This document shows, one piece after another, positions 1 through 5,305 of a DNA stretch of 7,049 nucleotides. This DNA comes from a virus (lineage: Duplodnaviria > Heunggongvirae > Uroviricota > Caudoviricetes): IMG/VR virus record IMGVR_UViG_3300014682_000012; one strand, written 5' to 3'. Both the position numbers and the translations under genes were made by a program. Under the pieces are notes generated by a model. It did no database searches and was not told where the DNA came from. It was given only the letters and a program-made list of their open reading frames with translations. The first letter of the stretch is position 1, and each line of letters begins with the position of its first letter.

Positions 1-759
1 CTCAACCAGATCACTATCGAAATTCACCGAAATAAGTACGTTCTGATTCTTTTTCGGCATTCGCTCACTACAGCTTATCCAACCATCCGGAGTTACCGGA
101 GAGTTGCCCGATAGTGCATTCTGCTCCAGTGATGCTTTTACAAACCACGCTGCCTGAACTATTACGCCATGAATCCAGCGCAAATCAGCATCGCGATCGT
201 TCTTTTTCATCTTCTCGCCACTTAAAGCCTGGCTTATGTGGCTGCGTACCAGGTCTTCATGTAACTCCTTCGCATCCTCAATAGTGAAACCACCAGGCAG
301 GCGAGCCGGGGTTACATGAGGGTTGCCTTCCCTCTGACTCTGAAGCATGGCGGCGCGGCAGGCATTCCAGGCAAATAGTGCGGCTTCTTCCACTGAAGGC
401 GGAGAGTATCGCTCGATAAACGCCTGTGCATTTGACAGCCTCCACTCATGAGGCACTACCAGCGCTGGAGGGGCGGTGTAAAGCTTACGGGTCTGAACAC
501 CTGCCCCCAGGCATTTCTCTTCCTCAACAAATCCTTCAAAAGCACATTCCCCGCAATCTTCCCATTCTCCCCATTCATCATATTCCGTATCCCACAGGCG
601 GTACTGATATGCCACCGGCTCTGCTTCCAGCGATGCCAGTGCAATACGAAACACATTGGCAAGCAGGCTGTTTGAAGATTGGTTATCGTGCGCCGGGTCA
701 CTCAGGAAACCAGTGATGAATGATTTAATTTCCGCGTTTTCTCTGGTAATAGTGGTCAT
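1..759 (-). CDS. Hypothetical prophage protein, 3-prime end beyond window start (at least 253 aa); acidic Cys/Trp-rich N-terminal part, possible DUF551-like C-terminal segment
   Basis: Not in the ORF track because it runs off the edge. Plus-strand frame-1 triplets 1..759 contain no TTA/CTA/TCA, so the minus-strand frame is open from ATG (759..757) to position 1. RBS AAGAAGGGG lies about 7 nt upstream. The ATG overlaps the TGA of the upstream ORF (ATGA). Translation begins MTTITRENAEIKSF... and includes ...PDGWISCSERMPKKNQNVLISV, which resembles DUF551 from memory. Confidence 0.6.
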   Translation of the reverse strand, partial: MTTITRENAEIKSFITGFLSDPAHDNQSSNSLLANVFRIALASLEAEPVAYQYRLWDTEYDEWGEWEDCGECAFEGFVEEEKCLGAGVQTRKLYTAPPALVVPHEWRLSNAQAFIERYSPPSVEEAALFAWNACRAAMLQSQREGNPHVTPARLPGGFTIEDAKELHEDLVRSHISQALSGEKMKKNDRDADLRWIHGVIVQAAWFVKASLEQNALSGNSPVTPDGWISCSERMPKKNQNVLISVNFDSDLVE

Positions 760-989
760 GCCGTAGCCCCTTCTTGATATTTTTCAAACCAGAACACAAC
801 CGGGTCAGATTTCATTTCAACCAAACCCATACGAATCAGCGCCTTGCCTTTCCCGGAAGCAAGGAATTCACGACGACCATCACTGATAATTCGCCGATAA
901 TCTTCCAGGCTGCTGCAATGCTTGTGCAGATTGCATGGGTGGCATGCCGGAACCATGTTGGATATATCGTCACGTTCCTGGTGAAGCAT
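756..989 (-). CDS. Hypothetical Cys/His-rich small protein (about 77 aa from the first ATG after the gap); true start uncertain because of the N-gap
   Basis: Open frame from ATG at 989..987 to TGA at 758..756 (MLHQERDDISNMVPACHPCNLHKHCSS...). The stop overlaps the downstream start (ATGA), suggesting translational coupling. The track ORF 756..1028 extends through the 10-N gap, so the N-terminus cannot be resolved. Confidence 0.4.
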   Translation of the reverse strand: MLHQERDDISNMVPACHPCNLHKHCSSLEDYRRIISDGRREFLASGKGKALIRMGLVEMKSDPVVFWFEKYQEGATA

Positions 990-999
990 NNNNNNNNNN
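990..999. other. Run of 10 ambiguous bases (assembly gap or masked segment)
   Basis: Directly visible as nnnnnnnnnn at 990..999; it interrupts coding sequence on the minus strand. Confidence 0.95.
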
Positions 1000-1158
1000 G
1001 TCGTTATACAATTCAATAACTGGCTCAATTATTTTCCCGATTGCCCAGACAAAAATTAGCGGGGATATCGGTATCATCAACACGATAAACAGAATGAGAA
1101 ACAGGAATTCTGTTGTTCTACTCTTTCGTGGATATTTTTTTCTGAATAATGTGACCAT
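1000..1158 (-). CDS. Possible small membrane protein (at least 53 aa), C-terminus lost in the N-gap
   Basis: ATG at 1158..1156. Translation MVTLFRKKYPRKSRTTEFLFLILFIVLMIPISPLIFVWAIGKIIEPVIELYND has a basic N-terminus followed by a roughly 23-residue hydrophobic stretch typical of a single transmembrane helix. The frame differs from ORF 756..989, but gap length is unknown. No strong SD directly upstream. Confidence 0.3.
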
Positions 1159-2781: not shown

Positions 2782-3852
2782 TTACCCCCTGAAGCCCGGT
2801 GGAATTTCGGTATCCGGTTCAGAAATATGATTCACACAACGCTGGTTGTTCGTGCCGCTTACCGGGAGCAACCAGGGGTTTTCAAAATTCCGGTCCGGTC
2901 CAAAAAACGTCGTCGCTCGCTGAACAAATTCCGTTCCCGTTTTCCCGGTAGCCGCTAGGTATCTTGCGTAACGCCTCACACCATCCAGCATGGCCTCTGG
3001 TGGCACCCCCTCGCGTAATCTGGCCTTCCAGGCACTGAAAGCGGATTTCTTCGGGTTTGCCCCGGCACGCAACGGGTATTCCCGCCAGACCTGTTCGAAC
3101 ACATCCGGATAATCCACTCGTCCCACAGGCTGCCCGGTGTTTTCCGGGACTACCCGATCGGCTTCCCGCTGAATGGCGGAATCGGCTTCAGGCTGCTGCA
3201 GTTGGTGTGATTGCTCCGGCCTTGCGGTCATCACCTGCTGCACAGCGCCCGAATCGGCTTTCAGCGCATACGCTGAATCGGCTTCCGGTGTCGTGCCTGC
3301 TGGCTGACCAGGATTGACGGTCTGAACATCCCCTGCCTGGTTCGTGGCGTTTTTTACGCCATGGACCATAGTGTTTTGATCTTCTTGATCTGTATCTTTA
3401 TCTGTATCTTTATCTGTCGTGACTCGTCGTGACATGTGCGTGACATTTCGTGACGCGCCGTGACAATCTCCATTTTGTTCCCGCTTTCTTTCCCTCTCTC
3501 GCTGCGCCCTCTTGCGCTCTGCAGGAGATTTTGCGGTTTGCGAAATATTGCCGTTGTCCTCTTTAAGCACCTGGCGTTTTTCCCATCCAGTGATTAAATC
3601 ACCATCAAGTACCCGCCCCTGCATCGTCTGCAAAATTGAATCAATTACCTCTTCTGTCACGTCGAGCGCACTTGCCAAATCTTCTGTCGTGACATCAATG
3701 TGACCTCGCGTGACATTTCGTGACGCGCTCACCAGGAGGTGGATATACACTGCCATCACTGTTGCAATTGGCTGCCCTGACACCCTGGCAATTGTTCGCC
3801 ACTTAGGGTCATTTGGCATGTCATGCCATAATCTGAGCCAGGCGTTAGCCAT
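2782..3852 (-). CDS. Phage replication initiator-like protein (N-terminal winged-helix-like region, low-complexity acidic linker, conserved C-terminal YdaU/DUF1376-like domain)
   Basis: Long ORF (track 2782..3858 begins at GTG; ATG at 3852..3850 has a GGTG RBS). N-terminus MANAWLRLWHDMPNDPKWRTIARVSGQPIATV..., C-terminus DYPDVFEQVWREYPLRAGANPKKSAFSAWKARL...FFGPDRNFENPW. It lies after cro-like and cII-like genes as in lambdoid phages, and carries internal iteron-like repeats. Family assignment is from memory. Confidence 0.75.
   Translation of the reverse strand: MANAWLRLWHDMPNDPKWRTIARVSGQPIATVMAVYIHLLVSASRNVTRGHIDVTTEDLASALDVTEEVIDSILQTMQGRVLDGDLITGWEKRQVLKEDNGNISQTAKSPAERKRAQRERERKREQNGDCHGASRNVTHMSRRVTTDKDTDKDTDQEDQNTMVHGVKNATNQAGDVQTVNPGQPAGTTPEADSAYALKADSGAVQQVMTARPEQSHQLQQPEADSAIQREADRVVPENTGQPVGRVDYPDVFEQVWREYPLRAGANPKKSAFSAWKARLREGVPPEAMLDGVRRYARYLAATGKTGTEFVQRATTFFGPDRNFENPWLLPVSGTNNQRCVNHISEPDTEIPPGFRG
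3361..3464. repeat. Ori-like module inside the initiator gene: AT-rich segment with two GATC sites and a 12-bp tandem repeat (TCTGTATCTTTA, about 2.5 copies), followed by five CGTGAC hexamers phased at 10-11 bp
   Basis: CGTGAC begins at 3418, 3428, 3439, 3449 and 3459. GATC at 3369 and 3378. Tandem repeat at about 3380..3415. The DNA repeat encodes the TDKDTDKDTD linker. Confidence 0.6.
3656..3728. repeat. Second iteron-like array: one inverted GTCACG plus four direct (C/T)GTGAC hexamers at 10-11 bp phasing, including an exact 21-bp copy of GCGTGACATTTCGTGACGCGC also present at 3438..3458
   Basis: Hexamers begin at 3688, 3699 (TGTGAC), 3709 and 3719; inverted copy at 3656..3661. The 21-bp exact repeat is at 3708..3728 and 3438..3458, 270 bp apart. 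Confidence 0.55.
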
Positions 3853-3923
3853 ACTCACCTCTTTTGATACCGAATCTTTTTACTCACAAATTGCCGGAAG
3901 TGATCCGGTATGAATATTGCGAG

Positions 3924-4666: not shown

Positions 4667-5305
4667 ATGAGCAAGCAAACAATATCTGAACGCATAACCC
4701 AACGTATGCATGCGCTAAACCTGAAAGGCAAAGACCTTGTCAATGCCACTGGCGCATCAAAAGGCTCCGTAAGTCAATGGATGAACGGTGGAGGAGCGCC
4801 GTCCTCGCGTTACATAAGTTCACTGGCAAAGATATTGAAAGTAAACGAAAATTGGCTTCTTAATGGAGGAGAGTTAAATACAGGTGATTCGCTTGATCTA
4901 TCTTTACCGCCGATAAAAACGGTTCCGCTACTATCACTTCAGCAGGCAGCAAGCTGGAGTGATTATATGAAAAATTCCTCAATAACCTCTTGTGTGCAGC
5001 TTGTCGGAGAAATCCCGGCCAATACCTTTGCAGTTGTTCTAGAGAGTGACAGTATGTCAACATCTGGTGGGGGAGTTTCCATCCCAAATGGTTCAACAGT
5101 TTTTGTTGATCCCGATCGAACCGTACAACCAGGAAATATTGTCCTTGCCTTGCCCAAAGGGACCACAACACCTGTCATTCGTAAACTGGAGATTGAAGGG
5201 CCGGATATTCTTTTAGTCCCCACGAATCCTCGCTACCCTTCAATTATGCTGGATGATCTATCTTGCATATTGGGCGTATGCTTTAAAATTCAACAAGATA
5301 TTTAA
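4667..5305 (+). CDS. CI-like phage repressor, 212 aa: N-terminal XRE-type HTH plus C-terminal LexA/S24 peptidase-like autocleavage domain
   Basis: Complete ORF. HTH LKGKDLVNATGASKGSVSQWMNG. C-terminal domain with the Ser in VLESDSMS and the Lys in VIRKLEIEG at spacing consistent with the S24 Ser-Lys dyad. No SD before the ATG, consistent with a leaderless transcript as for lambda cI. Confidence 0.9.
   Translation: MSKQTISERITQRMHALNLKGKDLVNATGASKGSVSQWMNGGGAPSSRYISSLAKILKVNENWLLNGGELNTGDSLDLSLPPIKTVPLLSLQQAASWSDYMKNSSITSCVQLVGEIPANTFAVVLESDSMSTSGGGVSIPNGSTVFVDPDRTVQPGNIVLALPKGTTTPVIRKLEIEGPDILLVPTNPRYPSIMLDDLSCILGVCFKIQQDI

Follow-up and report, generated by a model that had tools for sequence, protein, structure and literature searches.

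The stretch of viral DNA analysed here (7,049 nt, hereafter the window; IMG/VR record IMGVR_UViG_3300014682_000012, Caudoviricetes) carries on its minus strand a replication initiator gene. Inside this gene lie two arrays of a regularly spaced hexameric core, named A1 and A2, and an AT-rich repeat directly next to A1, which we discuss below as parts of a putative replication origin. The coordinates of all features are compiled in Table 1.

Table 1 Features of the putative origin and of the initiator gene (positions in the window)
Feature	Position	Strand	Remarks
Replication initiator gene ('phage replisome organizer')	2782..3852	-	356 aa from ATG at 3852
N-terminal winged-helix-like domain (residues 1-90), presumed iteron reader	3583..3852	-	coding sequence
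Upstream array A2, GTCACG x3 + GTCACA x1	3688..3724	-	inside N-domain coding sequence; residues 43-55; ASRNVTRGHIDVT
Single inverted iteron core	3656..3661	+	32 bp downstream of last A2 copy; codons 64-66, DVT
Linker array A1, five GTCACG cores (coding strand)	3418..3464	-	10/11-bp spacing; encodes residues ~130-145; CHGASRNVTHMSRRVT
AT-rich, purine-strand-biased repeat, presumed DNA unwinding element	3368..3417	-	coding strand ACAGATAAAGATACAGATAAAGATACAGATCAAGAAGATC; encodes TDKDTDKDTDQEDQ
Inverted repeat / hairpin	3338..3368		13-nt arms, 5-nt loop; directly downstream of AT-rich element by gene transcription
C-terminal tail, candidate host-recruitment motif	2785..2856	-	GTNNQRCVNHISEPDTEIPPGFRG; resembles host DnaT C-terminus

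Repeat arrays inside the initiator gene

The mechanically called open reading frame (ORF) extends from 2782 to 3858 on the minus strand, with a GTG start at 3858 and 358 aa; the ATG at 3852 is likely the start codon, giving the 356-aa protein of public clusters. The function of the protein is indicated by a full-length match to phrog_3729, 'replication initiation protein' (E 5.5e-258; protein 3-358 vs profile 1-356 of 356 positions), and by the name of its NCBI protein cluster, 'phage replisome organizer' (P0001, 5786 members; window protein 99% identical). With the replication genes of the phages Tritos, Evi and vB_EcoS-689R5 it shares 98-99% identity. A Pfam scan of the 358-aa protein returned no family at E <= 0.01.

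On the plus strand the core reads CGTGAC, and the five copies of A1 start at 3418, 3428, 3439, 3449 and 3459 (spacing 10, 11, 10, 10); Tandem Repeats Finder reported the same region (3416-3465) as a 10-bp period repeated 4.9 times. A2 comprises, on this strand, three CGTGAC and one TGTGAC with spacings of 11, 10 and 10. In the entire window 10 copies of the hexamer occur on both strands, vs 2.33 expected, a number that none of 200 dinucleotide shuffles reached. The inverted core is also present in Aeromonas and Pseudomonas phage homologues. Both arrays are located 130-440 nt inside the gene, away from its promoter. Phage Tritos, whose complete genome has 46 kb, shows a single cluster of the core (9 of 25 sites within 300 bp, the remainder singletons), and a further origin-like cluster in that genome was rejected.

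By gene transcription, A1 is followed by the AT-rich tract, in which a 12-bp unit, TCTTTATCTGTA, is repeated 2.9 times at 3383-3417 (Tandem Repeats Finder) and two GATC sites are found at 3378 and 3387. The GC content drops to 32-34% at 3350-3424, compared with 52-62% in flanking parts of the gene, and the least stable 50-mer of the gene coincides with this tract (3368-3418; nearest-neighbour free energy -57.2, z = 2.6 for the window).

An earlier note, made by a model from the sequence of the window, had described five CGTGAC hexamers at 10-11 bp spacing beside an AT-rich stretch with two GATC sites and a 12-bp tandem repeat, all within an initiator ORF that encodes a TDKDTDKDTD linker and, at both arrays, the peptide SRNVT. 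Each of these elements was recovered, and the initiator assignment agrees with the profile match, the cluster name and the cI/Cro/CII-like neighbours listed further below. The proposed extent, 3361-3470, holds A1 and the AT tract; it proved too narrow, as the unit also has A2, the inverted copy and the hairpin.

Conservation of the repeats and co-variation with the N-domain

Homologues of the N-domain were gathered from phages and 80 bacterial species, yielding 81 homologous loci. Because of the 10-nt period the core GTCACG is read in three frames, as tGT CAC Ggc (CH), gcG TCA CGa (SR) and GTC ACG (VT), and 252 of 306 spacings between neighbouring cores at 57 homologous loci are 10 or 11 nt. 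In 20 species with the GTCACG core we compared synonymous sites: third-codon positions were conserved to 0.96 inside cores vs 0.55 outside (Mann-Whitney p = 6.5e-7). Codons overlapping cores were nearly fixed (GCG 18/20, TCA 19/20, GTC 20/20, ACG 20/20, GGT 20/20, CAC 20/20), and in the inverted core GTG was kept in 18/18 and GAC in 15/20 sequences, while outside the cores synonymous codon use of the N-domain was scrambled across the same species. Just one position beyond a core, the third base of R49 is free (CGA 8, CGC 6, CGT 5, CGG 1). The peptides encoded by A1 vary widely between species, among them GDCHGASRNVTHMSRRVT, EACHDASRNVT, DVTQCHAESRNVT and LSRDVTATSRDVT, and the cores stay. Conservation of the inverted copy argues that duplex DNA is recognised rather than RNA. 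These comparisons, together with those of the AT-rich tract described below, showed that conservation of both core arrays and of the neighbouring hexamer repeat, rich in AT and purines, is at the level of DNA and not of protein. The earlier note had already suggested that the DNA repeats constrain the coding sequence, and had named homologues devoid of phased hexamers as evidence to the contrary; the homologues were found to keep them.

A 21-nt identity between the arrays of the window, GCGCGTCACGAAATGTCACGC, prompted us to consider gene conversion between A1 and A2. This was rejected: over 22 genomes (the window and 21 loci) the longest A2/A1 matches averaged 11.2 within and 10.2 between genomes (p = 0.29).

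Five core types were distinguished across the 81 loci. GTCACG is found in enterobacteria, Aeromonas, Pseudomonas, Bordetella and others; Ralstonia phage Hennie is among those with GCAACG; and GTAACG, GTGACG and nGAACG(C) occur in other lineages, with Pantoea and Enterobacter homologues having GTAACG. With these five strict cores, A1 (at least three phased copies) was detected in 62/81 loci, and in more with looser cores; A2 was found in 50/81 by strict criteria. In 42 of the 43 genes having both arrays, A1 and A2 were of the same core type (permutation mean 17.6, maximum 28 in 10,000 permutations). The alignments thus compared showed that the core sequence switches jointly in both arrays as the N-domain diverges. 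The genes flanking the initiator and its C-terminal modules vary among loci (DnaB-type helicase, lambda-P-like, DnaC/IstB-like, or none), so that the arrays have no constant companion but the N-domain. A host factor as the reader is disfavoured by the differing cores of enterobacterial relatives (GTCACG, GTAACG or an unrelated 11-mer). The five-way series of cores with matched reader domains provides a natural system for studying winged-helix-like DNA reading and the co-evolution of initiators and their sites.

Two further ideas about the arrays were tried. A 'self-encoding' reader, with specificity determined by the A2-encoded peptide, is unlikely; one locus (L155) has GTCACG in A1 yet encodes QAENRGYL where SRNVTRGH is expected, and its close relatives L153 and L158 use nGAACG. 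Strict helical phasing from A2 to A1 was rejected, as the arrays lie 178-309 nt apart (median 258) and the phase is not conserved.

The AT-rich tract was equally general. In 62/62 loci the 60-nt segment beyond the last A1 core was AT-richer than the gene (0.589 vs 0.426, p = 7.6e-12). Among the two-fold degenerate codons for D, K, E and N, the fraction with A or T in third position was 0.70 after A1 vs 0.43 elsewhere (p = 7e-9), and the preference persisted in genes with a GC content of at least 58% (0.59 vs 0.35). The hexamer AGA[T/G]A[A/C/G] (AGAKAV) reaches 3.37 copies per 40 nt there, against a background of 0.05, with at least two copies in 54/57 loci. It is read in all three frames, on a coding strand with 75% purine, and the tract stays constant across iteron types. 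GATC sites, counted in 14 loci, numbered 0-2 in six enterobacterial loci and 0 in the eight others, too few to speak of an enrichment in Dam+ hosts.

An equivalent of the hairpin occupies the same place in three divergent relatives, with one compensatory double change from T:A to A:T. Its arms also encode a conserved VHG..A peptide, so the constraint may act at the DNA or the protein level. Read in antisense, the hairpin has a T-rich run behind it and obtains a terminator-like score, the total of the scan being at chance; it could stop antisense transcription from entering the origin. An internal promoter-terminator arrangement was rejected, since consensus scans remained at chance level (promoter-like 1 vs 0.6 expected, terminator-like 1 vs 0.8, this one site being the hairpin).

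A homologous 300-aa initiator ORF with both GTCACG arrays lies unannotated in Pseudomonas phage phi1 (KT887557; L002, 2501-3400), a Detrevirus record. Several records of related Pseudomonas phages give the region as 'hypothetical protein' or leave it without annotation.

The initiator protein, its modules and their setting

The AlphaFold2 model of the initiator (mean predicted local distance difference test, pLDDT, 61) falls into three regions. Residues 1-90 form a helical N-domain that ends in a helix-turn-helix and a beta hairpin; a basic helix (110-127) and a disordered stretch (segment 129-243 with pLDDT < 50) follow; and residues 245-330 make up a confident helical C-domain. A1 and the AT tract encode the disordered linker, and the residues encoded by A2 are at the end of helix 29-49 and in loop 50-55. 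Structure searches with the initiator gave only weak, generic winged-helix matches.

The initiator is the sole recognisable replication gene of the Tritos genome, whose annotation includes neither helicase nor loader nor primase; a P-type loader gene after the initiator was found neither in the window nor in Tritos. At the other end of the protein, the NCBIfam profile for DnaT (NF002770) matched residues 335-358 (E 0.0015, 18.2 bits vs a cut-off of 201), and phmmer against the PDB aligned the tail, and the tail only, with DnaT chains 6aep, 2ru8 and 9zbt. The single-stranded DNA-binding domain of DnaT (PF17948) is absent from the window initiator and present in sister proteins with the same N-domain. 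As only the last ~24 residues are DnaT-like, the label 'primosomal protein I', as given in phage Evi, is not justified for the window initiator. A DnaC/IstB-like gene comes after relatives bearing the tail, and a lambda-P-like gene after one relative without it. Since phage loader and helicase are missing and the tail QRCVNHISEPDTEIPPGFRG resembles the end of DnaT, we infer recruitment of host DnaB/DnaC, and the sequence hints at a DnaT/DnaC route. The preprimosome structure paper contains no description of a function for the C-terminal tail of DnaT. The absent phage loader and the DnaT-like tail suggest a route, possibly a new one, by which a phage origin would reach the host helicase.

The gene is modular. 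Partial matches in E. coli genomes break off at window positions ~3377-3395, inside the AT tract. The cassette of N-domain and arrays is also fused to C-modules of other kinds, DnaT-domain proteins of O157-type prophages among them, and conversely the C-module of the window occurs with a different N-domain. Judging from these alignments, recombination junctions between N-domain cassettes and C-modules fall in the AT-rich linker, similar to the mosaic joints in lambdoid O genes. On the same C-module, one locus (L169) carries an N-domain of another family (phrog_25210/1701, 'DNA-binding protein'), non-homologous or very remote, whose gene likewise has two 38-nt arrays (485-522 and 741-778; 11-bp unit AAGGGGCTTCG), 92% identical and 256 nt apart. 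The second array is followed by a 12-bp purine-rich tandem repeat, CAAGAACAGGAT, and then by the same hairpin. Hence the two-array layout recurs independently and is not confined to a single N-domain family.

Close relatives differ in repeat number: some have a 21-bp insertion in A2 (two cores, seven codons; VTTCHGVS), others extra cores in A1, and the TDKD units range from two to at least four (L086; proteins P0003, P0022, P0092 and P0099; viral loci L011, L014, L034 and L058). A 302-aa protein from E. coli chromosomes (P0020; …GDCHGAS/PEADSAY…), aligned to window ~3290-3450, retains a single one of the five A1 cores, has neither AT tract nor hairpin, and presumably represents an origin-deleted, replication-defective prophage.

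The disordered C-linker contains a further repeat. The sequence GAATCGGCTT (plus strand; AAGCCGATTC on the coding strand, peptide EADS) occurs three times exactly, at 3179-3188, 3251-3260 and 3275-3284, vs 0.6 expected, and 3 of 200 shuffles reached this number. The same motif is present four times at 915-1041 of L169 as GAAGCCGATTC, always with identical codons, next to the different N-domain. It may be a DNA site or an acidic peptide repeat.

In the window the initiator is preceded by a cI-like S24 repressor (4667-5305, plus strand), a P22-Cro-like and a YdaT/CII-like gene and followed by a DUF977/Ren-like gene, a gene order which, by sequence similarity, is that of a lambdoid early-right operon. 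An HNH-endonuclease-like ORF (756-1028, minus strand) is broken by a run of 10 N at 990-999. Of 5426 complete E. coli genomes, 1647 carry the initiator gene (at least 80% coverage); its annotation there reads 'hypothetical protein' or 'phage replisome organizer', and an origin feature is never given.

A probable origin, its rivals and its counterparts

Taken together, we consider the region very probably the replication origin of a lambdoid prophage, of the iteron type and embedded in its own initiator gene. In the scheme we infer, loss of the repressor would lead to rightward early transcription and synthesis of the initiator, whose winged-helix-like N-domain would bind the cores; as these are one helical turn apart, the monomers would be aligned on one face of the DNA. 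The five sites of A1 would nucleate an oligomer beside the AGATAA/AGATAC repeat of low stability, which would melt under negative supercoiling. A2, with four direct and one inverted copy ~260 bp away, may serve as an auxiliary cluster that raises the local occupancy of the initiator or loops to A1. The C-terminal module with its DnaT-like tail would then bring in the host DnaB/DnaC machinery. With the reader domain and its sites lying within ~450 bp of one gene, specificity would be inherited as one cassette, and recombination at the AT-rich linker would swap the host-recruitment module.

Several points weigh against this view. The core has just 6 bp, compared with 17-22 bp in classical iterons, and specificity must come from cooperativity; A2 is missing from several lineages that retain A1; and the full-text literature yielded no report of binding, unwinding or replication for this initiator family. 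An origin would moreover be told apart from an initiator-binding region of other purpose only by the adjacent unwinding-type element and by analogy with lambda and SPP1. No description of the origin of this family was found in the full-text literature either, where prior mention is possible as the main review of phage replication modules (2006) lies outside the coverage.

A more far-reaching proposal, to which we give clearly less credit than to its denial, is a distinct modular origin design beyond the lambda paradigm, with a co-evolving, looping second array, an invariant melting element and DnaT-like delivery of the helicase. The two-array layout, ~256-260 bp apart, does recur in at least two unrelated N-domain families. 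In such a design the AGAKAV repeat, possibly with the hairpin, could be read by the invariant basic helix (residues ~93-127) or by a conserved host factor, and the DnaT-like tail could route helicase loading via the host replication-restart or DnaC machinery and not via a phage loader.

The arrays might instead be initiator-binding regulatory sites, for autoregulation, as an in-gene roadblock or for titration ('handcuffing'), with the origin elsewhere. Additional iteron clusters do serve control in iteron plasmids, A2 lies within the coding region far from AT-rich tracts and is dispensable in some lineages, and the inverted copy forms a head-to-head pair as in Rep operators. Yet A1 is universally followed by a compositionally selected repeat of low stability that a pure operator would not need, the complete phage genome has no further core cluster, and the arrays start well inside the gene and not at its promoter. 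We therefore regard this explanation as improbable for the arrays as a whole; for A2 alone it could hold.

Still less probable, in our judgement, is that the sites are read by another protein of host or phage, in partition, packaging or repression by the DUF977 or CII-like neighbours. Phased short repeats are indeed known from centromere-like and regulatory sites. Against this, the core type follows the lineage of the N-domain and not the host, flanking genes vary among homologues that keep the arrays, ParA/ParB genes are absent, and the terminase genes of Tritos are at the opposite end of the genome. No DnaA box with at most one mismatch occurs in the window, and dependence on DnaA through such boxes was rejected as well. 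That the repeats are a by-product of a protein repeat (SRNVT, DKDT), of slippage in a tolerant linker or of an mRNA signal, without function in cis, is scarcely tenable: the linker is indeed disordered and variable in length, with TDKD units differing in number between E. coli copies and indels of two iterons (21 bp), but this reading is already largely refuted by the frozen synonymous sites in an otherwise scrambled domain and by the AGAKAV repeat, which is kept in different frames and against the GC bias of the host, and it is further opposed by a period that is not a multiple of three, by cores read in three frames, by the conserved inverted copy, a different sequence in RNA, and by the lack of any match in an Rfam search for non-coding RNA.

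If the region is the origin, its value is practical, given how widespread the module is in E. coli: the initiator gene resides in ~30% of complete genomes and the N-domain cassette in O157-type prophages, yet no origin is annotated. A known origin would assist annotation, work on prophage-derived replicons, the interpretation of induction and replication, including that of elements resembling Shiga toxin (Stx) phages, and studies of incompatibility and exclusion.

Among known systems the closest parallel in layout is lambda, where ori likewise lies in the middle of an initiator gene, gene O (also in Stx phages and in gene 18 of P22). In lambda, the N-terminal domain binds direct repeats that precede, along transcription, an AT-rich unwinding tract, the repeats encode the linker and the iteron number shifts by in-frame indels; the same order and behaviour are seen here, and the cI/cro/cII-like early operon context is shared. 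The earlier note had stated that the element mirrors lambda. This holds for the layout, with iterons before the AT tract and a linker between domains, and fails for the protein: the lambda O family (Pfam Phage_rep_O) was not among even the weak hits of the initiator at E <= 1, so that the parallel is one of architecture only. The iterons of lambda are 18-19-bp inverted repeats, each binding a dimer, whereas here an asymmetric 6-bp core recurs every 10-11 bp. Lambda has one array, and here a second is set into the coding sequence of the DNA-binding domain; a class-invariant purine repeat and the lack of an adjacent loader gene are further differences.

In Bacillus phage SPP1, with which related origins of Gram-positive phages are grouped, oriL lies within gene 38, which encodes the origin-binding protein G38P, and consists, as here, of direct repeats together with an unwinding element that is AT-rich; the repeats are in the middle of the gene, and a 9-bp tandem repeat, AT-rich as well, comes after them. 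Both proteins go by the name 'replisome organizer', and a few remote PHROG links connect them. Homology to G38P was nevertheless unsupported: PF09681 (Phage_rep_org_N) matched with E 0.13 and 12.8 bits vs a cut-off of 23.3 (protein 5-122, profile 1-118 of 121 positions), and hhalign of the N-domain alignment against G38P gave a probability of 0.2%. The second binding region of SPP1, oriR, is ~13 kb away, compared with 260 bp and the same gene here, and SPP1 encodes its own loader and helicase, which the Tritos annotation lacks.

Two site clusters, one at the unwinding element and the other auxiliary or regulatory, are known from iteron plasmids (P1 incC/incA, F, RK2, R6K) and from phage P4 (ori/crr). 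In those systems the clusters flank the rep gene or lie kilobases off, the iterons measure 17-22 bp (8 bp in P4), and the initiators are WH1-WH2 Rep proteins or the P4 alpha protein. The window initiator differs in having no Rep_3-type domain, as the Pfam search matched none of the plasmid iteron initiator profiles (Rep_3 / WH1-WH2), and a phage in its lytic cycle would have no obvious need for copy-number control.

Phage P1 offers a counterpart with an unrelated initiator and, in the part of the source drawn on, no description of phased hexamer arrays: its oriL is located inside repL, and an A/T-rich region within that gene, dissected by synonymous changes, is integral to replication (PMC9948254). 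The principle proposed for the window, an iteron origin within the gene of its initiator, is ordinary in this company, and some of its features are variants.

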